This document shows, piece after piece, positions 1-20,000 of a stretch of DNA of 20,000 bases; position 1 is the stretch's first letter; each line of letters starts with the position of its first letter. Position numbers and translations under genes: made by a program. The notes beneath the pieces were generated by a model. The model was given only the letters and a program-made list of their open reading frames with translations. It ran no database searches and was not told where the DNA came from. Origin of the DNA: Streblomastix strix (Eukaryota); contig SNRW01000001.1 of the NCBI GenBank assembly GCA_008636045.1, positions 54,191-74,190 of the forward strand. Reading direction: 5' to 3'.

Positions 1-3000
1 AATTTTCGTTCTGTTTTAACATGCGGAAGTTAGTGATCGACTAGATGATTATATATAAAACTCTCCAATTGTCTCTTTATTAGTTGTGATTTCAATATTT
101 CTTAGAATTGGACCCCAATTAATCACTACATTAATATATCTTTCATCAGTGTGACCTCTAACTTCAGCAACAAATAATAACATTTTATCGACTACTAATG
201 GATCATTAGAGAACCTACTAGTGTCATATATTAGTGTTTTACATCGATTTTGATCAGTAATCTTTTCAATAAGTTATGCAGGCATATATATTATATGATT
301 TGTGTATGGATTTAAGGCATTCGGTTCACTGCTCATAACACTAGGATATTAGCTATGAAAATCTAACTAAACTACATGAGTCATCACATTATCTGAATAT
401 ATTGAATACATACATTTATTTTTTTAATCAAATTCGAAATGATTAATTCTAGGTTCTCCTGCAATATTATATCTATGCATCACATTTGATATACCTCCAG
501 TGATTCCTTTACGCAATAATTGATATCCTTCATCACTCGTTAATGTCATGGGTAATTATTTAAATAACGCATATTTCTTTAACTATACCATTTGTTTCAT
601 CTAGTTTTCATCACGAATAGCTTTACATACATTGCAGTACAAACAGCATGGAAGTACGTTATCTTTTGAGTGTCCTTTACTATTATCTATTCTATCTAAT
701 GTGGGCCTATTTTTCCATGTGAATCGTGCATCAAATATGTGGCATCGTTAATTCTTGAATATTTCTTTAAAATAATCATAATCATCAATTGTTACATTAT
801 TGCTTGAATTTCTATTCATTTTATTATCTTATTCAATATAGCTTTCCACTTTTGCTCTCCAATAATTCTATGTGATATCGATCAATTTGTCAGTTGATTC
901 ATAATTGTAATTACCTTTTATATCAAAATCACTATAACATATAGCATATTTGATCGCATTAGCGCATTGTGACATAGATATATTAGGTAGCATATCAACC
1001 TTGTATTTGAACATTAACTCAATCAAGTAATCTATAGGTTCAATAAGAACTCTAGTATCTAATATATTGTAGTGCTTCAAGTAATCCCATCATGTTTTGT
1101 GCTTTGCTGCTTCGACTAGGTACTCTTTGTACTTTACTTCATTAAGTTTCTTATTTCGTAATTTATTATCAAATGTTTCGATCGGAAATGGTTCAATTTT
1201 ATTCAGTTCATTCATGTAATTATTAGTGTTTATGAATTCATGAGGAAATCTACCATTTTTATAAGTCCCATTTCCAAAATCTCTTACAGCATCCTTTAAT
1301 TTATTTTACATAGAATAGATCTTAAAATCAACGAATCTCAAATGAATGCTTGAAGACTAATGCTTCACAATTATCTATTTTGCGATTGTGCTTGATCCCA
1401 AATACTTAGAGATAGGCCAATTCTTTGATTTCAAATTCTTAAACAACACTGACGCATCAAATTTTGCTTAATTGAACCCAATTACAGGTAATTCAAAATA
1501 TTATGGGATTGTTTCATCTATATATTTATTATCTTTCTTAACTTATTTCGCTTCTTCAAATAGCTATTCTAACCACTTATCTAAGAAATCATCTGTTCGA
1601 ATATCGTAATAAAATGAATGGATATCGCTAGCAAATTTGACAGTTGAATCAATAGCGTATGGAATTAGAATTGCAGTAACTTATGAACTATCACCGAATT
1701 TTTCATTAACTTTATTTTCTAATGTTTCAATATCATATGTTATGTAATATCTTGTAGGCTTGAAAAAATGAGTTAGATTGTTCGCTAATAGATACTTATA
1801 AGTCTTGTTAGATAAAATATGAGGAACAAACGGTTTTGCAAACTTCTCTAAGATGACTTTCTTAACTATTTTTCCATCATTCTTTTGACATTTTTTCATA
1901 TGATTTCTCATCTGTACTTATAGATTTTTATCATTTATTCTGAATGCTTACCTATGGCATATATTACAGTAACGAAATCCAGTTAATGCTTCTACATCAG
2001 ATATATACATAATGTGAGCATTAATTCCATCATTAATGAATAAGATATTGAAGTGCTTATCCAAATCATTAGCAGTATAATTTTATGTTAATTCATAATG
2101 TTGTGGATTGTCTTCAAACGTATGCATGTGCACGTTAACCTGTTCTTTTTTAATGAAGTTATCAATATCTCCTACGAAATCGAATCCTTAATAATTATCT
2201 TGAAACCCCACTCCATTTACTCTTGAAAATATACGCTTAGCTTCTGCGATTCTAGAACAATCCATCCAACGTTTATCCTTTGAATTAGGCATTGTGATGA
2301 ATGAATACGCTGTCCAGAAACATAGATTCACCTTATAATCTACATAATAAATCTCTTTTCGTTTAATATGCTACTTTAATGATGGAATAGCCGCACCTGC
2401 TAATGGATATCGAAAAATAAAGAGCATTATTTAGAATATTGATACTATTTTTTCATGAGTATCTGTGTTAGTTCTCTCTTACATGGTTCCTATAACTGTT
2501 CGAAGATACTACTTGTACATATTAATGTTATCTCTAGATCGTATTTCTAATGGAGCTCTTCTTTCTGAACTTGCATCTACTAGAAATATATATTTGTATT
2601 TAATTGTTTAATCTTCATTATTACCATTAACACTTTCAATTAACACACCAAAATCAACAGCTAGTTTAAACACATTACCTTTTTCTTTATCATATACGGA
2701 GTCCAAGTATTTATCTAAATCGGCTAATGAAGCAATATTACTATAGTATTATTTTGTTGGTTTGATTTAATTAGTTGATGATAAATTATACGATTTGTAT
2801 GAAAGAGTGCCTGTTTCTTTATTGTATCGATTTAATGCAATATTCTTAATCCTACTGAATTTCGCTTCATTCTATATGTCACATAGCATAATCACATCAT
2901 TATCCGTATTTAGATGATGATACACATATTATTCATGAGTTCTAATGTAATCGCTAATTTCTTATTAGTCTGTTTCGAATAGTATATCGATGTTCATATC

Positions 3001-3525
3001 CTCCACATTATGAAATTCATCTAACAATGATGCTTATCTTGCTTATCTATCTTCATCTTATTTTCTCCTACGTTCTTCTATCTTTTATGCTCTTAATTAA
3101 TGCTGCTATTATTTATATCGTTCTAGATCGAAAATATCATCTTCATCTAATTGTTCTGGATCGAACTCTTCTCGTAATTCTTTTATGTCTAATTCACGTT
3201 ATTTTTATAATTATTCTTATTCCTTTTATATCTATTCTTCTCGTATTAACCGTTATTATTCCCGTTAATTGAACCATTTTCGAACACGATTTTATATAAC
3301 AGTTGCTGCTTTGGATTGTTCCATATATATATTACGTGAAACTACTGCATTGATCGCTTATTCCACAGCATTAACGTTATTACGTTAACCATAGAATCCG
3401 ATCTTTGTCAGTATAGAACTTAGCGCTGATCTCTTCATATTATTACTCGCATTTATGTCTGTATTTGGATCGTATAATTAGAGTAATCGATTAACGTCTG
3501 CAATTGATATCTTTATTCAAGTCAT
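1..3525 (-). pseudogene. polB: Protein-primed family B DNA polymerase (N-terminal/terminal-protein region, vOTU-like domain, Zn finger, 3'-5' exonuclease, HNH insert, palm); 3' part runs off the window
   Basis: One frame from ATG 3525 to about 61 with TAR=Gln. Motifs: ExoI YDIET (1723-1737), ExoII GFNQAKFD (1456-1479), GRFPHEF, ExoIII YNILD (1057-1071), RKGITGG, motif A DFHSQYPSVM (334-363). In-frame TGA at 3517-3519 and 1090-1092; probable +1 frameshift near 57-60. Confidence 0.92.
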
Positions 3526-3566
3526 TTCGTTGATTCAAAAATAAATTGTCATATGATTGATTATTT

Positions 3567-4877
3567 TCAATCCTATTACATCGCTCCTTATCTTCTTCCA
3601 GCTTCATTTATGGCTGCAGGTGCAACTTAATTATATATACGATCAATTTCGGTTGCAAATGCTTCTTCATCAGTGTTAGTTTATGTAAAATATGCCTATG
3701 CAATTTATTTCTTAAATGCAATTGCACCTTATTTTATATATCATTATTTTCCCAATTTTATTGTGGATCAATTATCTATAAGATTTCTCTTACAACTTCT
3801 CTCCATGTAGCTTATGCAGCAGTAACATACTAGCCTCCCCCCCATTTTTCTATTTCATTTGTTTTTCTAAATTCTTAAGCAATTGTAGGAATGTAAGTAG
3901 CCAAGAAATGATTTCTTGGAACTAATTATTAGAATTATTTCATTTTATAAGAGCCATTTTTATGTTATGCTCCAACTGGAACTTCCTTACCTTACATAAA
4001 ATTGAAGAATTTATTATTGTTACGTTATCTTTTGGTACACCAGCTATATATTATTCTCGATATTTATCATATTTACTTTCATCTTTTGGAATGTATCCTC
4101 CGATTGAATATAACTTTCCTTTATTGGTATGAACAGTTGCGAATTCAGGTAATGGACCTTATCCATCTGGATCAACCATCCGCATAGTATATCCTTGCAT
4201 GCCTTTTTTACCAGAAATATATGCTTCACCTGAAGGAATAGTTCTCAATTCTTAATTATATTTCATATCTTTATGCAGGTTTTGTTTATTATTTAGTATA
4301 CCAATTAATGCTTATAGTTATTTTGCATTTATTCCTGTTGTATGTTTAATACGACTTTCAGCAAGCTTCTATTTTCTAACATTTTTCTTGTTTAGTTATT
4401 CTTCGGATAATGGAGTTTATTTTTTCAGCAAATATTACGCGAATCTTGAAAGTTACGGTTATGCTTCAGCCATGTTTTGGTTTTGAGTAAAAGTTGGTTA
4501 TCGTATTTATTCTATTGCATATTCTCTTTATTAATCTATTGGTTACTCTTGTGGTTACTTTTATATGTTCCTAAACTGATTATTCAATTATTGATCTAAT
4601 AGTTTATGGCGCTTCCGCTATAGTTCTTTATTCAATTTAATCAGCTAAATTCCAATATTTTTCTTAAATTCATCGAAATGCTTATGCTGTTTCGTTCAAT
4701 ATAGTTAATTATTCTTATTATCTTTAACGACCTTTATGTTTATGCTAATTGTATATTTGTTCTTCTGCATTACGTAATTCATTAAAGAATTCATCATTAT
4801 CGCTTGCAATTTACCGAATATCTCTAATTTCATTGTTTAACTCTTCTGCACTCACTTGTTAATAACAAAACGTTCAT
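3567..4877 (-). pseudogene. Hypothetical viral protein (~430 aa, Gln/Glu-rich N-terminus), frameshifted
   Basis: Protein-like segments (QVSAEELNNEIRDIRQ...; YTMRMVDPDGQGPLPEF...; FATEIDRIYNQVAP...QQD*) join only with frame changes near 4560, 4020 and 3728, plus a TGA at 4670-4672. Start codon uncertain. Confidence 0.55.
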
Positions 4878-4906
4878 AAGTGATTGAAATAATTAATAAT
4901 AACCAA

Positions 4907-5680
4907 ATGTCTTTAACTAGTTACGTGAATCAATTACTTAGTAAACAGAAAACTAATAAACATGAAGTATAATCTATGATTCATAAAGAGCTCAATTTCT
5001 CATATAATTCTATCAATCTTCTTATAGGATAGCGAGGAAACGGTAGTTCATATAACATATTCAAAGAGCTAATCAAATTGAGTTGGTTACCTAATTAGTG
5101 TTACACGTTATTCATATATGTTATTGATAGCAATAATGATATCACATATATGATGATGAAAGATTTAATAACTATTTCAACAAAAATAGTACCATATTCA
5201 GAAGTGAATGAAACATTAGATGAACTGATTGAATGTAAGAAAGCGTATGATGAACTAAATGAATATAAGTTAGAGAAATAAATGAAAGAAGAATCTAAAA
5301 TAGCTATATTATCTCACATTGGAGCAAAGGATTTTTCTATCAAATTTCCACATACAATAGTGTTGTTCGATGATGCAATGAGTATATTCAAAAATAAGAA
5401 CAATCCACTATACAAGAAGTTATTCAAAAATAGATAGCCAAGAATTACTTATTTCCTATGTTTGCAAGATATTATTGGGTTAGATGCTAGCATTAAATCA
5501 AACGTTGATACTGTATATTTTTTTGGCGGATTCAATAGATAAAAATTCAATTTATTCTTCTATCAATCATCGCTACTGTTGGATAAAGAAACATTATGGA
5601 ATGAATATGTGTAATTAGGTAAATGAGAAGCATTATTGGTATAATATAGTAATGATATAATTATTGTACGAGTTATTTGA
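4907..5680 (+). pseudogene. A32/FtsK-HerA-like genome packaging ATPase
   Basis: ATG 4907. Walker A-like LIGQRGNGSS (G at 5027; Lys replaced by Ser), Walker B IVLFDD (5357-5374), Arg-finger region KNRQ and YFLCLQ. Internal TGA at 5624-5626, next TGA at 5678-5680. Confidence 0.85.
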
Positions 5681-6085
5681 TCAATGAACGTATTCATCAT
5701 TTTAGTAGGAAATTGATTGTTATTTTTATTCAAAGAAGCTTAGTAAAAACATTAATTTACCATTGATTTCTTTGATCGATTCTTATATGTTAGTTAATTC
5801 ATTTTATTCCGATTATTTATGTTTGGATTATTTTAATGCTATTTATTCATTCTAACGTGTGAAGATATATCCTTCAACTTTATATAATTTATTTAATCTA
5901 ATAGATGGCATCTTATCTATTGTTTCTTTGTTAGCTGCGTAATATTAATGGAATTCGTCAGTCGAATCAAACGTTAATGGTTATGCATCAGTTTTATTGA
6001 TAATTTTTAGTTCAGATAATGCTTAGATTTTATCCTTAGATTTATTGTTCTTAATTAGCTTACTATCAAACAACACACGATACAT
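5681..6085 (-). CDS. Hypothetical viral protein, 134 aa (MYRVLFDSK...FDSTDEFHQYYAANKETIDKMPSIRLNKLYKVEGY...)
   Basis: Intact ATG-to-TGA frame with TAR=Gln. TTATTTTTG lies 10 nt upstream. Its stop abuts the ATPase stop (TGATCA). Confidence 0.75.
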
Positions 6086-6117
6086 TTCAATTTAACAAAA
6101 ATAAATTAGCCGAGCTA

Positions 6118-7001
6118 TCAATGTGCTCTCGATGAATTAATAATAGCTTATTTTGATCAATAATTTAATCTAATTAGTTTTCTTAGAATGTGTAATGAGT
6201 CAACCATATTTTCACGTCTTATCTTTATTATAAAACTTCTTTAATCTTTTCATTAATTGTCATAGCAATTGGTAAGTTATCAATAAATAATAATGATTCA
6301 CGAAGATATCGTTCTTTTTTTGCGGGACATAGATTTTTTCTATTAATTCTTCTAACTCGTATTGTTATTTGATCTTCATGTTAGTCTTCATGTTATTAAT
6401 CTTCACTAACCTCTTCAACTATCAAGATATATATTTTTTCTTTACCATTTGGAACAGCTCTTGGAGCTAATTATCGAACTTATTAATTCAAATCAGTTAT
6501 TCTATCCGATAATGTATCAGTAACTTCATTAATAACGTTATGGAATTGATCTGCGATTGCCTATGTTTTATCAGCATCATGTTCTGCAATAGTTGTTTCG
6601 TTAATTTTGTCCATAATATCAGTTACAATATCAAGATATTTGATAGATGTCTTCATTCAAATTATGCTAATTAATTTTTTATATATATATGTTCCTCTGA
6701 CTTCTTTAATATATTCATTAATCAACTAATATTCAAGTTAGGGGGGCTGGTCCTTTTTGGACGCAGCCGATTTGTCTTGGATAAATTTCTTATATTCCCT
6801 ATACATCTAAGTTACCATTATTTTCTTCAATTATTTGTTAGTATTCTCTTACTCATTAATCAATTGAACTAGTTTGGTAGCGTTAACATAACCATCAATA
6901 TCTCTTATCAATATTTCGAAACCATTATAAGATCCAATTGTAAAGCTCTCGTTGTTCGAAGTTATTTTGCACAATTCGGGTGTTGCTGTTTCTGTAGTCA
7001 T
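6118..7001 (-). pseudogene. KilA-N domain protein with coiled coil and a DUF3627-like C-terminal region
   Basis: ATG 7001. KilA-N hallmarks ILIRDIDGYVNATKL and VRGTYIY..LI. In-frame TGA at 6657-6659; probable 1-nt frameshift near 6150 before ...IINSSRAH*. Confidence 0.85.
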
Positions 7002-7075
7002 TTCTGATTAGTAAAAGAGTTTGGTTAGTAAATTGAAACTAATGATTATTAGTTAATATACAAAAATAATCTCAA

Positions 7076-7468
7076 TCAATATACAAGCATTAAATCAAGT
7101 ACGAATTTTATATCTGTTTATTTTACATTCTAATTCATATTATTCTTGAACCAAATCAACATACTTCGTTAATGATTCATTTATTAAAATTCATTAATTG
7201 TTCTAATTTCATTACAAAAACCTACAAAACTATCGTAATATTATTCTTATTATACTAACGATGAGTGAATGGATACAATATCTGGAGTATTAAGTATCTT
7301 GTATTACAAGAATATTATTTTTCGCTCATTGTTTGAATTAACAAAATCAAAGGGTAGCTGAACTCGATATTTCCCTTCATCATATATGCAATCATCCTAC
7401 ATTATCATAAAGTGTTTTACATTCTGAGCTGAAGTCCTATCATTAATTATCGCACGATTATAAGCCAT
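7076..7468 (-). CDS. 130-aa beta-rich protein, possible minor capsid (penton-like) protein
   Basis: Intact frame MAYNRAIIND...VQLPFDFVNS...IWFKN...IKFVLDLMLVY*, directly downstream of the capsid gene. The function is inferred from position and strand pattern only. Confidence 0.55.
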
Positions 7469-7497
7469 TTTATTACAGAAATAATATTCCATCAGTA

Positions 7498-9220
7498 TCA
7501 AGCAGTTACTAATCCAATAACCTAATTAAATGAATGAGTTGTATCATATATGCAAGATCTTCCATCTCTAGGACTGAATAGCCAGAAATTATCGTGAACT
7601 GTGCACAAAATTGGAGGAGGTGGATGTTTTCCATTAGTATCAACATTATAGTAGGTATCAATTGCACCTTAGTATAGTGGTTATCCTCTTAGTTCAATTG
7701 AAGCATTTTAGTTCTGGGTGTCTAATCCATCAAATGTTAATGCATTATTGCTATTACGTTCACATTAAAGAATGATGAAAAATGATGTATAATCAGTTAC
7801 AGAATTATATTTTCTAGTTGAATTTCCTGTTGGAGTTGTTAATGAATCTTCATATTCATCTGTAGCTTCGAATATATTATCGAGATTATTTGCAGTTATC
7901 TATATTGTGAAGAATTATTCATTAAGTGTATTCATGGGAAAATCTGGGAAATTTCTACTTAAAGTAGACAATTACATATTTTAATAACATGAATTTTCGA
8001 AGCAAGTAGTTTGTCTAGCGTCCTTAGGAAATAGTAAGCACATATCAGTAACGTGAGATAGCGGTATATTTTATAAAGCACATAATCCAGTAAGAGTAGC
8101 ACCACTTGGAAATGCCCATGTTTCAATACATTATGCAGGTACGATAAATGGACACGATGAATAAAATTATCGTACACGATTAAGACATTCTTGTGAAGCT
8201 TTATATACACACATATTTGCAACAGCTGCAGTAATGATATAGTTTCTTAAAGAAATTGTTACTGGTTTGATATCATATACAAGATTCTTCAACCCTGATG
8301 GAGTTAGTTCTTCAGCACGTACTCCAGTAATCAAATCAGCAGTGCATCCAATTTATGTGAACATATTTGTGTATTAGAATGTGAGAGACCAATTACGGAA
8401 AAATAGATCAATATCCCTAAGCTTATCTTGACCTGAGCTCAATAATTCATCTTTATTAATTGTATAATATCTAGTCATCGAAACTACTGGATCAATTTGG
8501 TAGAATATGAATGCGTTTGGATTAATTTTGAATTTAATTTTAATATCACCAAACAGACTATTAGGATATTCAGAGAATGCTGAGAAAATGAGTAAATCAT
8601 CAAGAGGAATTGAAACAGAGAAATTAACTGGCATAACATATGGTGCAGCAGTTTGTGGAGCAAGTGCATCTGAAATATCCTTGATTCTAAGATATTTTCC
8701 ACAATGTGATACATCATCTTTACGTACATTTTCATAGAGTAAATGAACTATTCTATTATTATTTTTCTCTGATTTGGGTTTAATAGTATTATAGATAAAT
8801 TATTCGGTGGTAGAATCATTCTGAAGAGATCCATCGATTGTCTTTCCTCGATGATATAGAGTATATTCGCGAATTAGTTATGCAGATGATTTTAGTCCAA
8901 CAAATATAAATGTTCCAGCTCTATAAGATTCGCTAAATTAATCAAATTTATTATCGAACAATAGATTCATTGTAAAATCAAGAGTAATGAATGAATTTTA
9001 TATCTATGTTACGTCATGATCTGGATCGGTCAAACTGATAATAACTTCCTTGTCAAATAATGATGGCATTTATGATTCTGGCCTGATCTCTTTGATTGAA
9101 AAATGGTGTTGTCTATCATTCTAAAATGGTAGAATTGCGAAGGTCTTTAACAAATTCTCGATTGTTTCCAGATTTTGTTGTGTTGTTAGGCACACGTGTC
9201 TTCATAAGTTGGCGATTCAT
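7498..9220 (-). pseudogene. Probable major capsid protein (double jelly-roll type, ~570 aa)
   Basis: Uninterrupted TAR=Gln frame from about 9189 to TGA 7498 (IFVGLKSSAQLIREY, VSIPLDDLLIFSAFSEYPNSLFGDIKIKF, PPPILCTVHD). ATG 9220 is out of frame, implying small indels in the first ~12 codons. Size, beta-rich pattern and context next to the ATPase fit a capsid protein. Confidence 0.75.
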
Positions 9221-9273
9221 GTTTAATTCTGTAAAATAAATCTGATTATATAATAGTTAATACGAATAGTGAT

Positions 9274-9603
9274 TCACTGAAATTCATTTCCAAGTAGTTA
9301 TATCCGTTTACTAATTACATCAATTGGAACATTTTTCCTTAAGTAATTGTCTTATTGGAATGTCTTAAAATCCTATCTGAATTGTTATTTTGATTATTAT
9401 TTATTAGGTCCAAATAAAGCATCTACGGCTGATGATCCTACACTAATTCCTTTCGCTACCATACTTCCTGCTGGTCCCAAAGATGATAGAAGTGCATTAA
9501 TTATGGGCATTATTGGCTTGACTATTTTATCATTCATCCAATAGACTCCTTTACCAACAACTGAGATTAATTTTTTAAGCTTGCTGAGTATTCCCGGCGC
9601 CAT
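9274..9603 (-). CDS. 109-aa basic protein with an N-terminal amphipathic helix (candidate virion core or membrane-penetration protein)
   Basis: Intact frame MAPGILSKLKKLISVVGKGVYWMNDKIVKPIMP...LLGNEFQ*. TTATTTTTG lies 12 nt upstream. Confidence 0.7.
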
Positions 9604-9635
9604 GATTTTAAACCGCAAAAATAAACGTAATCGCA

Positions 9636-11264
9636 TCAAATTATCAAATCATTGTCTAATAAGTGGTACATTCCACTAGCGCAATATTTATAAATATCAG
9701 TTGATGATTCAAGAATAACTTCTTGAACATTTTGCAAAAAGCAATATAACATTTTATAATATTAATTGAATCCGAAATAACACATATCTAACCAATTTAT
9801 ATATCCACCAGCATTTCTATAGACAGATGCAGGAAATCCCATACTTTTACCATCAGCTGGTAATATAGCATCTGGAATCCTACCGATCTCCTATTTACTT
9901 ATTGCTTATCCTTTTGTTTCAAAATATAGATTGAATACGCATACTTTGCATGTTCCATCATCAACGATATAAAACGTATTATAAGCATGACCACCCTGAT
10001 CAAATGGTGCAATTAGTTAAATTTAATTGAATACATTAGTTAATGTATATATTGGCTAAGACGATGATGTTTATAATTTATCATGTTTTATTACAACTTC
10101 ATTAATGTGAGAATCTGGTTCTTTTGTATCTAACGGATATACGTTTGGTTCTTCATTTGAAGTTGGATTCTTATAGTTATCGAGTATATATGTTCCTTGA
10201 AATTCACAATCATACTTATTCAATACTCCACTTACAGCCACTTCTACCGCTAATGATTTATCATAAATTTCTTTGAACAAACACATCGCAGTATATTCTT
10301 ATTGTTCAGTACGAACTGGCATATATTTCGTACTTGGAGGAAGTAAATTTTAACTAATTGTTGTGAATAATCTATGAACTGTTTATCGGTTTTCTGAATT
10401 AGCTTATGATTATATTATTTATCAAAGTTTAACACCAAAACTGAATGTAAAAAATGGGCCTTCTTTAATGAAGAACGCTGCTCTATCCGCTTTATAGATT
10501 GCTAATTCATCCACTAATTTTATATCACTATTCAAGAAATTAACTTTATTATCTCCAAATAATTCAGTAACGATCAAATCAATTTATTTTTTCACAGTTT
10601 CGTATACATGAGATTATGTTTCGAATGTTCCTTTGCTATTAACATGCCATGTATCCATTATATCTACTCGTCCATCATTATTTGCATCATAGTTAATTAT
10701 CTTCGATTATTCATAATTCTTATAATAAGTTACGTTTATTGCAAGTGCCGTTTCTGATGGAATCTATGAAATACTAATTATAAATGGTCCATTCTAATCG
10801 ATATAACAAAATATACTATTTTTATTCATTGTATCTGTTCCAACTAATGCAATCACTTTATCACCTGCTTTTGGTCTCGCTTCTTCAGGATAACTTTTGA
10901 ATAAATATCCATTTGGAAATAATCCAGTAGTTTCATATGATACGGTTAGTGTTACACGATCACCATATACAATTAATTATGGATCTGATCCACATGATGT
11001 TAAGATACTAGATCATACTAGCAATGAACTTAAATCCAATTTTATAGGTGCATTTGAAACTGGAGGAATGAACTCTTCGTTTGTATTATTAAGAATATCA
11101 TCATTATCTTTCACTTATTTTTGTAACGTTTATTCTCCGATCGGTATACGTTATGCTGGTGGTATTGGTTCTTAATATCTCTCTCTAACATATGCGTATA
11201 ATTCAGGAAAATCTGATAGCCCTGCTGCGTCTAGTAATTCTTCATCTAGGTAAACTGAACTCAT
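9636..11264 (-). pseudogene. ~540-aa spike/receptor-binding-like protein with repeated beta domains and an EF-hand/dockerin-like loop
   Basis: Single frame from ATG 11264 to TGA 9636 with internal TGA at 11013-11015 and 10422-10424. Motifs YPEEARP, ISQNLLPP, IGRIPDAILP and DANNDGRVDIMD. Confidence 0.65.
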
Positions 11265-11301
11265 TTCATACTTCAAAAATAAAATGAATCGATCCATAAC
11301 T

Positions 11302-13695
11302 TCATTTAACCTATGTAGCAGATGCACATTTAATGTATGTTTTAGTTGTTGATTTACAAGTAATAAGTCCAATTAAATAAGTAATTGATAAATAGCCCCC
11401 TTTATCAACAGTGTGATTCGGAAATGGTATATATGTTATAACAGCTACATCATCCTAAACTAAATAATCAGAATTAAATGTTCCCATATTATAATTTCCT
11501 CCATTAGCGAGTAATGAAAATATATAAAGATTTCCAATTCTAATTAATTTAAATTATATTACTGCACCATTCATATTACTAAATGCAGTTGATGACAAAT
11601 CTTCAATCCCACCAAATGTTAATAATAATCTATCTCCACCACCTGCTAGAAGAACTGATGTATCATCTTTACCTGTTTTCACAAATCCTGTAGCACTAAC
11701 ATTTGCATTGAATGTCTTAGTTCCAGTTATTGATTGAGTTGTATTTGTAATAACAACATTAGTTAGTTTAGCGTCAATTTCTGACTAAGACAAATATGTA
11801 TTAGCTACAGAATCCTATGTTTCATCCTGATAGTCAAATGGACTTACATATTTTAATCTTCCAGTAATGGTTTATTAAATTGAACCTTCCAATCTTACAA
11901 ATTTATTATTTGCTTCAGTTTGTGAATTAGTTTATGTTTTTGTATAATAATTTGATAAATCAGTTGGTGCACCAGCGAATTCAGATATTGGTTTTGTTCC
12001 ACCTGCTCCAAGTAATACAACAGTATCATCTGCACCTGATTTGACAAATGATGATCCAGTAATTGTAGACATTCCATCGATAGAACTTACGAATCTACAA
12101 GCATTATTGAATGTTTTATTTGCATTTATTGTCTATGAAGTACCTAAGGTAATATAATTAGATTGTTCGGTTGTATCTGCTTTCTCACCTAATAATTCAT
12201 CTGTTTTTGTTTTATTGTAATAATCAGTCAAATCAACATCTCCTACATCAACCTATGATACTAAATAATCAATTTCTGTTTTGGTATATGTTGTTGATTA
12301 ATTTGCTCTATAATATAAGAGATTATTTGTCTCACCTTTAGTGTATGAATCAATCAATTTTGTTTTATCAGCTTTCAATAATAAGAGTGCATCATCCTCT
12401 GATTTGGAAAATGAAGCACTTTAAATATCTGCAATTGATCTAACTCCTCCACCCGCACAAACAGCAAATGTATTATCATAGGTTTAAACCATGATTCCAA
12501 CTGAATGTATTGTTGTATTAAATGTCTTTTAACCACTAATACTTTGATCATAATCTGTATCAACTAAATTTTTATTTTTTGCTGGTGTTAATGTGTTTCC
12601 ATCAATTGATATATCAGTAATTGCATTACCTCCTCCAGTAGCTGTTCAAAGAGTTGTTATAACATTACTCATATCAGGTAGTTCAGTTTCTAATAATTTT
12701 AAATCAGTTCCATCCCACCAATAATCCGTTACTTCCTTATCAACAATATATAAATTATCTCCAATTACTAATTTTGCAACGTTCTCTTGATCAGTCATCC
12801 AATCATTCAACTCAACTTACGTAGAGAACACATATGCTTTTGATTTTCCAGTAGCAATATCTCTAATTTCTTATAATTTTGGTTGAGTCACTAACGAACT
12901 TACTAACATATCTCTTCCACCAGCAAGAAGAATAGATGCATCACTTTTACTCAATTTCGATACGCTGGAAACACTAATTACTCCGAATTATTTTTATCCT
13001 GTTATTGTTTGAGCTGATGTTAAATCAACATAATTCGTTAAATCGGTAACGTTAGCTTTGAATAATAAGAGAGCATCATCTTCAGATTTGGAATATGAGT
13101 CAATTATATCAGTTTTATCAGCTTTTGCATCGAGTAATACATCATCTTCTGTTTTGGAATATGAATCAATTAATTCAGTTTTATCTGCTTTCAACAACAG
13201 TAGAGCATCATCTTCTATATTTGAATAACTATCCACAATATCTGCAACATTAGCTTTCAATAGTAGTAATTCATCATCTTCTGTCTTTGTATAAGTATCA
13301 GTTTTATCTGCTTTCAACAACAGTAGAGCATCATCTTCTGTCTTGGAATAACTATCCACGATATCCGCGACATTAGCTTTCAACTGTAAGAGAGCATCAT
13401 CTTCTTATTTAGTGTATGAATCAATTAATTAAGTTTTATCTGCTTTCTCATCTAACATTGTATCAGCTTCGGTCTTAGTATATGAATCAGATTTATCTGC
13501 TTTTGTATCAAATATTTCATTTGCTTCAAGTCTAGTGCATACATCAGCTGCAGGAGCATTATTTATATTATTAATTTGATTGTTAATATTTGTAACTTAT
13601 TCAATCAAGCCAACAGTATTATGACGAACGTTTCCGAACAAAATCTCATCATGAATTATGAGCACATCTAAAGAGTGTAAGTCTGCATCAGCCAT
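11302..13695 (-). pseudogene. ~800-aa fibre-like protein with tandem shaft repeats and a C-terminal head
   Basis: Single frame from ATG 13695 to TGA 11302 with one internal TGA (12646-12648). KADK..DSYSKTEDDALLLL repeats, and QTITGxKTF...VLLAGGG modules resembling tail-fibre shafts. Confidence 0.8.
13040..13550 (-). repeat. Coding tandem repeat, 57/66-nt units (19/22 aa)
   Basis: About 8 units of KA(D/N)(K/V)xx(xx)DSY(S/T)KTEDDALLLL; further copies near 12180-12420. Confidence 0.9.
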
Positions 13696-13724
13696 TTAAT
13701 TACCAAAAATAATATAGAGTATAA

Positions 13725-14318
13725 TCAATGAATTTGTGATAGAACAGCCATTAACCCTTTATTTGCTGCTGACATTAGTTTAAACAATATATCTCCTATA
13801 TTTAATATACTAGTTATTTTACTAACTTTTTGCAAACTTAACTTATAAGAATCTCTGAGAAGATTGACTTTATCGATATCGAGAGTAAGTATATTTACAT
13901 TATTGATTGTAATATCACTTAATGTTCTAGTGCCATCGTGCATAAATTTACCACAACATCTTTCATCTTCAGTATTAAGTACAACTTAGTTTTCTACTAC
14001 ATTAAATGTATATGTAATTACTCTTATTAATTAATGTTCAGATAACATGAAATGAGCTGATTCTTTAATCATATGTTCATCTTCACTAATTATGTCAAAT
14101 AGCCATCGACATACTGATGGATCAGGTATTATTATTTCTTCAAATATGGATGATCTTCTTCTTGATCGCAACGTTTAAACTTATACTTTATCTTATTCTT
14201 TTTCAAATGGTGAATCAACTTCAACTATTGCAGGAATTATCGGAACAGATAAACGTGGAGACATTGGTTCTCTTTAAATTATTTTTTCAGATGGCGATAC
14301 TGATCTTTTCTATGACAT
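13725..14318 (-). CDS. Hypothetical viral protein, 197 aa
   Basis: Intact TAR=Gln frame MSQKRSVSPSEK...RSRRRSSIFEE...ERCCGKF...LSQIH*. TTATTTTTG lies 10 nt upstream. Confidence 0.7.
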
Positions 14319-14370
14319 TTATTATTACCAAAAATAACTAGTTGATAATCATGAATAAAATGATAAATAA

Positions 14371-15318
14371 ATGGGAGTTTTATCATTTTCATTAGTTATG
14401 GTATTAGTTAACGTATTATATGCACTTGCAGCAATAAGAAATAAACCAATGTTTGCAATAGTAATGAACATTAGTGATGTACCAACAAACATCTCGAATA
14501 TCATTTCATTTATTATTAAAAAGATGCCTCGATAAACTATAAAAATTAATCAATTTACAATCAACTTCACAACTAAATTAATATTTGAAAAGAAACTTGG
14601 AGAAAAGAAATTAATTAGTAATGATGAAACAATGTATTAAAATGTAATTGGTTCTAACATTATTGAATAAGATATATTACCAAAGGATAACATTAATGAT
14701 GCAATTGAATAACTTAAGAATAATAAAGTGCCATTAATTGGCGAATTATATTATTCATTACTTCAGAGAAATACATTTAGGCAATGTAATGTGCATGTTA
14801 GTGATAAGAATAATTCAAAAAAAATCTCTACAGCTAATGTTGGAATTTAACATGAAAACATCGATCCAAATGAACTGTAATAGCTAGTGAACTTCGCTTA
14901 TGAATACGTTGGTGAAGATAAGATAATTGTTATGTTTGCATGCTATCTATTATATGAACGCATTCATCTTCATATTGATGGAAATGGAAGAATGGGAAGA
15001 TTATTATTTCTAGAAAATATATACTAATTGCCTGATTAATTTGTTCTATTATCAAGTACATTACGATATAATAAGTATTCAAGATAAATAATGAATGAAA
15101 TATTCAAACATATCAGCTTTGAAGAAATAATGAAGAAACGCCAGATCAAAAGTGGTGATGCAGCTATATATATAGAAGAGATAAAGGAAGCAGATATGAA
15201 TAGATTTAATGAAATCATTAACTCAAATTAAAGAACTAAGCAATAATACTATACATTAGATTTTGATGATAATACTTGTAAATTAATTATTAAAATATTG
15301 AATGTTATTAATGTGTGA
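14371..15318 (+). CDS. Fic/Doc family protein (AMP transferase-like)
   Basis: Open frame of 315 aa. Fic motif variant HLHIDGNGRMGR (14965-15000), flap-like FRQCNVHV, and SNIIEQ resembling the inhibitory (S/T)xxxE(G/N) helix. Start uncertain (alternative ATGs at 14351/14360 are in another frame). Confidence 0.85.
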
Positions 15319-15542
15319 GTTTGGAACAAGCAGAACGTATTGCAGCAGAACAGCGTTAATGTGCCCAATAACGCTATAGAATACAACGCTAAACCTTCCG
15401 TGCTCAAGCAAACGATTTACAATTACTCTTGATACGACGCCTTCAGAAAATTATTATAAATAACATGCAAGATCTACTTCAAATCAATGATATAATTGAA
15501 CATAATAACACAATGTAAGCAATTGATTTTGATCGATTTTGA
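15315..15542 (+). pseudogene. Small helical protein (~75 aa) lacking an ATG
   Basis: Frame (V)SLEQAERIAAEQRQ...NDLQLLLIRRLQ...AIDFDRF* begins at a GTG overlapping the Fic TGA. Confidence 0.45.
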
Positions 15543-15742
15543 TTAATTTAGAACGTTTATTTTTGGATTAATTCTAGGATTAATTTGTTAGTTAATGTAT
15601 GAGTTAATATATGAGTTAAAGTTAATATTCAAGAGATGTGTCGAAATGAGGTGAATTGGCCATGAGCATCGAGTGAATTGAGTTGAAAAATGTATTACAC
15701 TTCGAATAAGTTGGAGCTACAGAGATTCGCATTAAATTCTCT

Positions 15743-15778
15743 AAATGCATCGAGTGCATTGAGTGCATTGAGTCAGAG
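15743..15778 (+). repeat. Left arm of an internal inverted repeat built of 9-nt GAGTGCATY units
   Basis: aaatgcatcgagtgcattgagtgcattgagtcagag matches the reverse complement of 16475-16510 at 33 of 36 positions. Confidence 0.9.
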
Positions 15779-16080
15779 TTCGGCTATCTAATTTGGTGGA
15801 CAGTTTGACATTTGGACAGTTAATTCAATATTGGATATTATCGTTTATTATCCCACAGCGCTAGCACACACATCTAGTTTACAATCTAGCTGTCTCGAAC
15901 TGTCCTGCTAAATCAATTTGAAATACACCGACCTGATGCACCTATTTATTTTTGACTCATTTCTCCACAATTCCTTAATTCTACACTTTTATAATGAAAC
16001 ATTTATCTTTGCATGGAACTCAACACTATCGATAAAATCATTCTAAACATTTATCATTGAAGCATTTACAAAAATAAATC

Positions 16081-16396
16081 TCAATCTTATGTATTCACAT
16101 TTATCATTGGAGTTATCCTCATCTTTCTTCAAATAATATCTTGATTTAACAAATGGTTTACCATTCTTAGTTAAGTATTTTCTATCTAGTTTGTTGAACA
16201 TTAATACAGCGAATTCGTTTAATTACATATATCTTGGTTAAAGATTCATTACTTGTAAGAACCTTCTTCCATTTATGAATTCATCTTCATGGCTTTTAAT
16301 AATTTAATCTAGAAATTGATTGCTATACTCTAGATACTAAGATCTTTAATCACGTGGAGCATATGGATTATCATATTCAATCTTGCGTTGTTTCAT
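16081..16396 (-). CDS. ~105-aa stand-alone paralogue of the D5 helicase C-terminal (winged-helix-like) domain
   Basis: ATG 16396. LDQIIKSHEDEFING...QPRYMQLNEF...RYYLKKD aligns by eye with the helicase tail VDEVIINHFKSFRDG...KPQDMKLNNY...IYKMKEE. The end is uncertain: the TGA at 16081 needs a 1-nt shift, otherwise the frame runs to TGA 15773-15775. Confidence 0.55.
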
Positions 16397-16474
16397 TTAT
16401 ATTAAACTAAATATAAAACATTTAATGATAAAACTGTCCAGCTGTCTTACTGGCCGATATCTTTTTGGTTGACC

Positions 16475-16510
16475 CTCTGACTCGATGCACTCAATGCACC
16501 CGATGCACTT
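16475..16510 (-). repeat. Right arm of the internal inverted repeat
   Basis: Reverse complement of 15743-15778 with 3 mismatches. Confidence 0.9.
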
Positions 16511-16565
16511 ATTTATTTCAATCAATTTCTCTATGATTATAGAGCAAAAATAAATCCTATCAATT

Positions 16566-18480
16566 TCATTCTTATTCTATACCATCTTTTGCTTATTTAT
16601 TTAATTATTCTTCTTTAGCATCTTCTTTAATATCTTCATCTAACATGCGTTTATAAAATGATATCAGTTCTTCTTTCATTTTATAGATAAATTTACGTAC
16701 TCCATCAACTTATTTCTGTGTTCTTTCACATATACTTTTGATTGCTAACTAATAATTATTCAACTTCATATCTTATGGTTTTCATCCTTCAACAATACTG
16801 CATGTAACACCATCTCTAAATGATTTGAAATGATTGATAATTACTTCATCAACTGGTGATACTGATGCTCTTATTATATCTTTCTTTGCTTATGTCATTG
16901 GTATATCTCTTGGATTAAATTAACTAATATCTCTAGTCAAAAAGAATATGAATAAATTATTGTAAAAATCTTCATCGAAGCTATTGCACAAGTTAGTGAA
17001 ATACTTCAAATCTCCACGATGAACTGGATGACATTTGCATACAACATAGCGTCTATCACTATTCTCAATCTTTAATGGATAGATATTATTTGTAACAATC
17101 ATTACATTCACTATATTCTCAACTTCATGCTTAGGAACAGATTTCTCATTAATCACAAATGAATCTTCAGTAATTATTGATTTTAATTCATCCATATTAG
17201 TCATTCTTGAATCTCCAAAGTTCTTCATTTCATTCGCAATTGCTAACATCTTATTCTCGATAGCAGTATTGAACTTACCTACAAAATCATCGATATCAGT
17301 AATATTTTTTAGATGAATATCCTGCTAATAATTCACATAAAACATTAGTAAAAACATTCTTACCTATTCCTTATAATCCTTTAAGAATAATAGCTGTTTC
17401 AGTTTTCTTTCCAACATTTTGCACAATGAATGCAAACAAATTCAATAAATATTCATGCACTCGTTCATCATTTGCTGAGATTGTATCTTTCATTAACGTT
17501 AGGAATTATTCTATTTTTGTCTAATTCACTTCATCTAGTTGAGTATATTTGAATCCCTAGAATACACTGAATATCTTTTGGTTATCGCTAATAAATTTTA
17601 TACCTAACTTTTCGAATAATGAATGATATTGTTCTAATGCATCAATCCCAGTTATATGTTACTTTCCATCAGCTCACAATCTAATTGAACGTAATTAATC
17701 ATAGATAGCTGACTTACTCTTATAATTTATTACATTTTTCGCAATGAAACAATTGTATTCTTTGATGATGTAACACCATCCATTCTAACAAGGTATAATA
17801 CTTATTATTTTTAACAAATTTTATGCGACTAACTCTAATTTATTCTAATATTTTCCATTTAATGCTTTGCTTGATACATCCTTTAATGTGAATGAATCAA
17901 TCAGACCAATTTCATTCTTCTCAATCGATTTCACTACTGTTTCTATCTTCTATTATTTCTTTGATTCATATGACTTAATGATTAATGGTTTAAGTGTAGA
18001 TTCATAGTAATCTTTGTTATGTAATTTAATGATTTTCGTTAATATCCATGCATTAGCTTTACTGTAATAACATCCTTTTCTTTCGCTCCAATGTTCACTT
18101 GCTTTAGCTGTTAAATTATTATTCATCTATACTGTTGAATATGCTGCTTCTTTATATTGCTCGCCTAAATGTTGTAATCCATTAAGTCCCATGAATAAAG
18201 ATAGTAAGCTAATTTCACGCTCTAATGCGTTTGTATCATTGTGAATTGATAATCCTTTTAACCCATCAATACATGCATCTGCAATATCTTTAAGCATTTG
18301 ATCAGGAGTGCAATCATCATTAATTATGCAAAAATCTTTATCTTTTGCTGTTAAATCAAGGTTCCATTTACCAAGAATATCAAATAATGAAGCTAGATGT
18401 GTTGCATTAGACCAATTATTAAATTCTTTAAAATGAAGTATCTCTTTCTTTTGTACTCCTTTATGGGTCAATATCAACCT
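16566..18480 (-). pseudogene. D5-like primase-helicase (superfamily 3), 5'-truncated
   Basis: Walker A GLQGIGKN (17356-17379), Walker B LAIANE, motif C MIVTNN, and SDRRY. +1 frameshift in the T6 run at 17305-17310; TGA at 17674-17676 and 16782-16784. No in-frame start ATG or primase motifs upstream of about 18480. Confidence 0.9.
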
Positions 18481-19730
18481 ATATAATTCATCTTTGAGCT
18501 AATAGATACATTTAATATATTAAATTTCACTGTTTTCTGTGAAATTAATAAAATATAAAAATACTGCCTATTCATCGAGAAATTAGAATTTTTGTCAAAA
18601 AATGTTATTTTCACATTCAGATATTAAATTTCATTATAAATATAAAAACTTAAGTTAAAAACATAAAATTAATGTTTATAGTCAAAATAAAAATTAAATA
18701 AATTTCTTATTCAAAAGTTACTTGAATTGGAAATTATATAGCAGAGCTCGTATAACATCATCCGCTGTGTTAAAACACTCAAATTTATAATAATTTATCT
18801 TTAATATTTTTATATAGATAATATTCAATAAATATTCTACATTTTATATTGATACGACAGAAAAAATCATAAAATATTTTATTTTTCAAAATTTACATTT
18901 TGTACATAATCAAGTGCAACACAAATGTAACTAAATATTTTAAATATTATTTTAAACAAATATATATGAGCAAATATTATTTTACTTTACTATAACTCGA
19001 ACAATAATATTTTTACATTTTCTCGTTGATTATATAGTATATTATTATATATTTGATAAATTTTATATTGCTATATTTATTTACATATAATTATAATGTA
19101 ATATCCGACAGATCGATACCACATGGTGCGCAAAGCGAGGGATAAATGCAAAAATGGAAAGGTTCATATCCTTATACCTGGTATGTATATTATATTTTAA
19201 ACTATAAATTATTATATAATCAATATATATCTTTATTATTTAATATAATTCATTTTAATTGTTATAATTATTTACTGCAGAAATTGAGCTATGAAAAATT
19301 TTGTAAAATTTTCATTGTATCGTGGAGGTTCAGTTGTTTTATTTTATATAAATTTATACATTTTTTATTTATTTAATGTTAATTATGATTTTTGATGTAT
19401 TAATTTCATATATTTTTTATCCTGTACTCATTTTAATGAAATTTTTTATTTTTGATAAATTTTAATACAATGCACCTTATTTTATAATTTAATCCACACA
19501 AAATAATTTTCAATACTTTATTATATTTACATATTTTTTATTTGTTATAATAAATTGTTTCAAAATCGTAACGAAAAACCGATTTTAATTATTTAATGAA
19601 AAATTTTAAAAAGTGGTTTTCTCCCTGGTCAATGATTTCCGGCATATAAAACTAATTTCACGGAAAATAAAATAATTAAGTATATAATATTATTTAATAA
19701 AAACATATATAAATTAGGTCGGTTGGCAAT
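18481..19730. other. Very AT-rich non-coding spacer (probably host DNA or a non-viral insert)
   Basis: Abrupt loss of protein-like frames, with long A/T tracts. Confidence 0.55.
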
Positions 19731-19733
19731 GGC

Positions 19734-20000
19734 CCATATGTTATGCTAATAGGTTTTTCAGTATCAATTCCTCCGGATAATTTACTCATATTATCTGCAT
19801 TTTCTGAATATCCTAATAATATATTTGGTGATATTAAATTAAATTCAAGATTAATCCATGCGCATTCGTATTCGGCTACGTAGATCAAGTAATATCTATG
19901 GCAAAATATTATATAATTAATAAAGATGAATTATTGAGTTATGGTCAAAATAAACTTAAGGATATTGATCTGTTCTTCAGCAACTGGTTTCTCGCATTTT
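19734..20000 (+). pseudogene. Fragment of a second, diverged major capsid gene; runs off the window
   Basis: PYVMLIGFSVSIPPDNLLILSAFSEYPNNIFGDIKL/KFKINPCAF...KDIDLFFSNW is homologous to 8643-8377 (minus strand). 1-nt frameshift near 19842; 5' part absent. Confidence 0.85.

Follow-up and report, generated by a model that had tools for sequence, protein, structure and literature searches.

The 20,000-nt window analysed here (Streblomastix strix, assembly GCA_008636045.1, contig SNRW01000001.1, positions 54,191-74,190 of the forward strand; positions below are those of the window) very probably holds a decayed, cut-off copy of a high-copy family of Maverick/Polinton-type double-stranded DNA viruses that reads TAA and TAG (TAR) as glutamine (Gln) and likely resides in the nuclear genome of S. 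strix, an oxymonad protist of the termite gut. An earlier note made from the letters alone had proposed a near-complete Polinton-type virus adapted to the code of its host, with a protein-primed family B polymerase (pPolB), a packaging-type ATPase and a double jelly-roll capsid. The viral identity and the code are supported. Completeness is not. At least six genes are broken; on the right the element stops at 18464, partway through the helicase gene, on the left the polymerase continues beyond the edge, and neither an integrase nor terminal repeats are seen in the window.

Translation table 6 reads TAR as Gln and leaves TGA as the only stop. Under table 11 the window contains 24 open reading frames (ORFs) of at least 60 aa, the longest of 129 aa; under table 6 its longest stop-free stretches reach 808, 567, 447, 422 and 420 codons. 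Nine stop-free stretches of at least 300 codons occur under table 6; shuffling the bases of 1-18464 100 times gives 3.17 on average, and the longest shuffled stretch is 628 codons. Because a single-stop code in AT-rich DNA yields long frames by chance, frame length by itself is only moderate evidence for a reassigned code, and the code was therefore tested by alignment to homologues. For the capsid, 62 distant rows at no more than 41% identity were used, 10 of them traced to ENA, JGI, Logan and NCBI. Among residues, Gln ranks first at 11 of 21 TAR sites, 4 of 9 CAR sites, 1 of 23 GAR sites and 1 of 22 AAR sites, and it fills 29% of the cells at TAR sites against a background of 4.7% and 5-6% at GAR and AAR sites; two single TAR sites carry it in 60/62 and 54/62 rows. 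Close kin have Gln in 71% of capsid cells at TAR sites. The ATPase and polymerase were compared with rows that lack an S. strix label. These and the distant capsid rows are taken to use the standard code, an assumption that relies on their being called as full-length genes and on their low Gln content (2.95% in the environmental polymerases, versus 5.55% in those of S. strix). In eight rows without the label the ATPase TAR sites 22, 177 and 212 align to Gln in 7/7, 8/8 and 6/8. In the polymerase, where Gln positions were masked before alignment to 21 rows, TAR cells are 12% Gln against a background of 2.6%, and one TAR site is Gln in 21/21; lysine (11%) and glutamate (10%) follow just behind, so the polymerase signal is modest. 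Across nine gene segments TAR supplies 163 of 220 Gln codons. Preferential alignment of TAR to Gln was a test that the earlier note had set for itself, and the alignments of all three genes agree on it; at the level of sequence comparison, the reading of TAR as Gln in the genes of this element is confirmed as real.

Could the TAR codons instead be nonsense mutations in a pseudogenised standard-code element, with no reassignment at all? Some are indeed private, such as the TAA in the exonuclease motif of the polymerase, where homologues have serine (16/16 and 49/49). Two of the three TAR codons that the earlier note had cited inside conserved motifs do not align to Gln either: the TAA of PolB motif A aligns to leucine in 21/21 rows without the S. 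strix label, and the TAG of the ATPase Walker A motif aligns to arginine in six and lysine in one of seven. However, TAR occupies the invariant Gln columns of capsid, polymerase and ATPase just described, supplies most Gln codons and faces mostly Gln in close kin. By these alignments the nonsense explanation is already refuted for the three genes, and as an account of the element it is hardly credible.

The product of 7498-9220 is, by its predicted structure, a double jelly-roll capsid, the fold that the earlier note had named as a further test. A model built from 83 rows, with distant rows added, has pLDDT 91 and pTM 0.91; it supersedes one from 41 close rows (pLDDT 43.6, no Foldseek match at E 0.001). 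Foldseek places the model closest to PBCV-1 Vp54 (best E 2.5e-13), followed closely by the capsids of iridovirus, mavirus and Sputnik, and its VIA match has Z 20.3 and rmsd 4.3 with 361 aligned, while sequence identity to solved virophage and giant-virus capsids is about 10%. The capsid assignment of the gene thus stands, but not its single open frame: it lies in two frames parted near 9187, and the start codons at 9220 and 9205 are in a different frame from the gene body. Searching with the 7498-9069 product gave 273 matches, and the 120 listed are all labelled Streblomastix strix, at 47-93% identity. One relative, P0016, is 62% identical over 559 residues, and its N-terminal stretch agrees by eye with the S. 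strix capsid confirmed in Table S3 of Bellas et al. (PMC10120064). Of the 24 capsid departures in the window copy 19 are private, which over 284 conserved columns makes 6.7%; in 20 kin the share ranges over 0-11.6%.

The polymerase is recognised through kin that carry PF03175 and are 75-87% identical over the aligned part; motifs B and C fall beyond the left edge of the window. The earlier note had expected genes of more than 1150 codons. None is open at that length: the longest ORF from an ATG has 782 aa, the polymerase frame being broken by TGA at 3517-3519, by TGA at 1090-1092 (arginine in 43 of 46 kin) and by a frameshift near 57. A polymerase search returned 78 proteins, 56 labelled S. 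strix, 21 without that label, and the window's own 782-aa piece, which belongs to a 74,190-base contig and which public records translate with Gln at TAR under the sole name "hypothetical protein". Its endonuclease VII/HNH insert has a PHROG match at E 1.4e-10.

In a quick tree of 50 rows, window included (those of 77 that cover the region; the careful search is unfinished), the Ser-Gln-Tyr form of motif A is restricted to one clade of 15 S. strix rows (SH-aLRT 100; 14 Gln, one lysine), in which identity to the window copy goes as low as about 60%. Outside it, readable rows have leucine, save one arginine and one phenylalanine, and three rows are unreadable. The codon is known for the window copy alone: TAA, one base from the leucine codon TTA. 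As far as sequences can tell, this pattern, together with a Gln content in S. strix polymerases nearly twice that of the environmental ones, suggests long replication under the host code. In a standard-code host the step from TTA to TAA would create a stop. There is perhaps an even chance that these viruses have been replicating with the reassigned code for so long that they are now tied to hosts that read TAR as Gln, with the motif A change from leucine to Gln arising once, in the ancestor of the 15-row clade, which then went on diversifying. If so, the host code would be both a host-range barrier and a source of new substitutions in a catalytic motif of a eukaryotic DNA virus, and if it opened such a mutational path, the family would serve as a natural experiment on whether viruses are confined to a host lineage by its reassigned code. 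No mention of the change was found in the literature on Streblomastix viruses and polintons, subscription papers lying outside the coverage. Several separate invasions of S. strix were also considered; they are unsupported, a single clade of S. strix polymerases not being rejected (p-AU 0.085; 20 rows, quick tree).

Two hallmarks of Maverick/Polinton elements are therefore present, pPolB through its PF03175 kin, though in a broken copy, and the double jelly-roll capsid by predicted fold, while capsid similarity and the use of table 6 agree with the Metamonada capsid group. That the copy is endogenous is indicated by the AT-rich flank and second capsid fragment that follow it and by the 74,190-base contig that holds the polymerase piece. 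The second fragment has two repeat pairs 81-82% complementary to 8378-8643 of the main capsid gene, and represents the remains of a separate insertion some 1.2 kb off. In intact members of the family, host ribosomes would read the genes under table 6, pPolB would copy the linear genome by protein priming, probably aided by the SF3 helicase, the ATPase would package it into the double jelly-roll capsid, and an rve-type integrase, which relatives such as P0151 appear to carry, would integrate it. Since host translation reads TAA and TAG as Gln, AT-biased mutation could have moved Gln codons to TAR, where about three quarters of them now lie, and allowed new Gln residues. After integration the present copy would have lost selection, collected its nonsense and frameshift changes and been cut at 18464.

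The family might alternatively persist as a transposon-like Maverick without virions, its capsid module a relic or rarely used. The 820 capsid matches given for one genome (Bellas 2023), the private departures at conserved columns in most S. strix kin and a literature on the group without a demonstrated particle all point that way. Yet the capsid, ATPase and neighbouring structural genes hold their order in kin, certain kin are nearly free of private departures (none at 280 conserved columns in the capsid P0010), and the capsid still gives a confident predicted fold, which makes this alternative rather unlikely next to a virus family.

How far has this copy decayed? Related contigs come from four termite gut metagenome runs of two studies (runs X1, X2 and X3 among them). 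Together with homologues they show six genes to be broken: the polymerase, the 3530-4473 gene, the ATPase, the capsid, the 9636-11264 frame and the helicase. The KilA-N gene, the fibre-like gene and the small gene near 4670, judged by frame only, are probably broken as well. The ATPase has also lost its Walker A lysine (GNGSS here, GSGKT in kin). As written, the copy is unable to make full-length polymerase, ATPase or helicase, and the open core frames expected of an active complete virus are not found in it. At 18464 six X1 and two X2 contigs continue with other sequence where the window becomes AT-rich, and therefore the helicase gene here has lost its 5' part.

Several observations weigh against this interpretation. 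The host is likely S. strix, a point that depends on the labels of relatives. The window yielded no integrase, the best match being E 0.062 with the integrase-like stretch of P0151; this protein, labelled integrase, also matches the window polymerase and 15315-15509, and the left part of the element lies outside the window. The ATPase is assigned to the A32 type by its motifs, Walker A and B being kept in kin, and by a weak match to the closest solved structure, that of the STIV B204 packaging ATPase (E 0.012). Run X1 contains only 0.37 of the window's sampled words. Of the listed differences to related contigs, 42 lie in genes whose frame is known (best-supported differences only): 23 are non-synonymous and 19 synonymous, a larger synonymous share than expected from simple neutral decay. 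In repeats of this kind stops often arise as assembly artefacts, as documented in other protists (Bellas 2023, PMC10120064), and certain breaks here may be assembly errors. Taken to its end, that last point would make the copy intact and active, its stops and frameshifts having arisen when numerous near-alike copies were assembled from short reads of amplified DNA. Besides the precedent in other protists (PMC10120064), no related termite-gut contig spans the whole stretch, at several places every covering related contig has another letter, and the helicase frameshift at 17305, where related contigs mostly lack the extra base, falls in a run of T. However, the lesions are numerous and mainly substitutions at conserved sites, a chimera of kin would carry the letters of kin whereas most capsid departures are private, and at its right end the element passes abruptly into AT-rich DNA; Logan contigs, moreover, drop rare variants, so that an absent allele is no proof of error. 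An intact, active copy is thus improbable, and a decayed one remains the preferred reading.

Table 1. Features of the element and its flank in the window.
Feature	Position	Strand	Remarks
pPolB gene	1..3525	-	runs off left edge; kin carry PF03175
Endonuclease VII/HNH-like insert	592-903	-	between exonuclease region and motif A; residues 846-949 of P0121
Conserved gene, three frames	3530..4473	-	breaks near 4028 and 3735; lower end approximate
Small probable gene	4480..4780	-	TGA 4670-4672, two-base difference at 4562; limits approximate, inferred
Packaging-type (A32-like) ATPase	4907..5680	+	premature TGA 5624-5626
134-aa ORF	5681..6085	-	no Pfam match above cut-off, no PHROG match
KilA-N protein	6087..7001	-	PF04383 E 7e-10; two ORFs in one frame, TGA 6657-6659; one-base difference 6151
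138-aa ORF adjoining capsid gene, candidate minor capsid (penton)	7076..7492	-	by position
Major capsid protein, double jelly roll (predicted), Metamonada group	7498..9220	-	frameshift near 9187 parts start codons from body
109-aa basic ORF	9274..9603	-	kept upstream of capsid gene in kin
543-codon frame, probable structural gene	9636..11264	-	TGA 11013-11015 and 10422-10424
Fibre-like gene, 798 codons in one frame	11302..13695	-	66-base repeats D1-D3; inner TGA 12646-12648
197-aa ORF	13725..14318	-	from ORF list; Pfam and PHROG scans
Fic-domain gene	14428..15318	+	start approximate; motif HLHIDGNGR
48-base inverted arms around 696-base variable segment	15731-15778 and 16475-16522 (15731..16522)	.	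repeat list, related contigs
SF3/D5-type helicase gene, 5' part missing	16566..18464	-	TGA 17674-17676, frameshift 17305, TGA 16782-16784
AT-rich flank outside element	18465..19700	.	GC 0.18-0.19 over 18501-19500
Second capsid gene fragment, same family, opposite orientation	19713..20000	+	frameshifted near 19840

The earlier note's pairing of pPolB with a D5-type helicase, together with KilA-N and Fic genes, is real at the level of domain matches. The helicase matches PF19263/DUF5906 at E 2e-14, which passes the Pfam cut-off as the KilA-N match also does, and primase-helicase PHROGs; the Fic gene matches PF02661 at E 7.6e-05 and 23.9 bits, slightly below the cut-off of 24. The two KilA-N ORFs, parted by one TGA in a shared frame, are probably one gene. 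Similarly, the two fibres of the earlier note share one frame parted by a single TGA and are probably one broken gene, whose product matches phrog_5004 (unknown function) at E 3e-12; "fibre" is a putative label. P0129 aligns across all three frames of the 3530-4473 gene, where related contigs have one-base differences, and kin of the 9636-11264 frame read through both of its TGA sites. The ATPase has no Pfam or PHROG match above cut-off. Public S. strix ATPase fragments carry the misleading names TraD/TraG, and one ATPase relative, P0227, bears the source label "Alphaproteobacteria bacterium", perhaps because a protist virus contig was binned wrongly. The ORF at 7076-7492 gave no informative match in Pfam, PHROG and further searches; its sequence pattern and place beside the capsid gene are what we take to mark it as a candidate penton. 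The ORF at 9274-9603, which in many kin lies immediately upstream of the capsid, has a likely amphipathic N-terminal helix, and may resemble the membrane-penetration proteins of adeno- and adintoviruses. No Ulp1-type protease match was found among the ORFs scanned, in the part of the element in view. Searches of the window for tRNAs and Rfam families gave no match, and strong CpG loss was looked for and is absent (CpG observed/expected 0.81).

Between the Fic and helicase genes, a 13-base motif has five copies in 15666-16522, against 0.09 expected, and builds the 48-base inverted arms. The arms are common among related contigs and the 696-base segment is rare; the latter has a 233-codon table-6 frame (15776-16474) with no Pfam match. 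The motif may be a regulatory site or a cargo exchange point. The arms were also considered as ends of the element, a reading rejected on one run X2 contig that links 15150-15588 to 16863-17066 within 1750 bases. Related contigs of runs X1 and X3 match the AT-rich flank up to at least 19200, and it may be a host repeat. Viral and metagenome contigs gave no related loci in searches with this motif or with a capsid pattern, the back-translation in the latter being one that may miss TAR codons.

The main claim, a virus family and its code, has been in print since 2023. According to Bellas et al. (2023, PNAS; PMC10120064), S. strix endogenous viruses follow the translation table of their host, table 6, so the element is not the new code-adapted lineage that the earlier note had inferred, and Table S4 of that paper lists 820 capsid matches in a 152-Mb S. 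strix assembly. Nor is the combination of pPolB and D5 helicase novel, since D5-like helicases are described in certain polintoviruses (PMC4405056), beside pPolB. The expectation that standard annotation would miss such genes fails too, as public records already translate relatives and the window's 782-aa polymerase piece in this code. Among the public gene models of S. strix, many fuse neighbouring viral gene pieces, apparently through predicted introns that skip the breaks. No treatment of Streblomastix viruses or polintons besides Bellas 2023 was found in the literature covered, which leaves out subscription papers. A 2026 preprint (10.64898/2026.06.19.733378) leaves the Metamonada elements ungrouped. 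Against about 820 capsid loci already known, the window contributes a single further decayed copy; its useful remainder is a gene-level map of a group that the preprint leaves unplaced, and a tree-based hint on the polymerase motif.

Among known systems, Trichomonas vaginalis uses the standard code, unlike S. strix, and its Maverick-Polintons likewise reach high copy number in a metamonad host. They belong to the same capsid group, with about 32% identity to S. strix capsids in Table S5 of PMC10120064. Closest are the S. strix elements of cluster MMPC_40 in the Metamonada capsid group (PMC10120064), which share the capsid family, table 6 and the double jelly-roll fold; the available parts of that paper give no gene map of one, and the copy mapped here is, by contrast, broken and truncated. 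Classical Maverick/Polintons (Polintoviricetes) and mavirus-like virophages likewise have a pPolB with a homing-type nuclease insert and a double jelly-roll capsid, and a packaging ATPase of which the A32-like gene here is a probable counterpart. The layout of terminal protein (TP), vOTU, exonuclease and palm, the homing nuclease inserts in polinton polymerases and the separate SF3 helicase of mavirus are described in PMC11161782. A Ulp1-type protease and an rve integrase are typical of the classical elements, whereas neither was found in the window; and mavirus has lost most of the exonuclease region (PMC11161782), which the window polymerase keeps.

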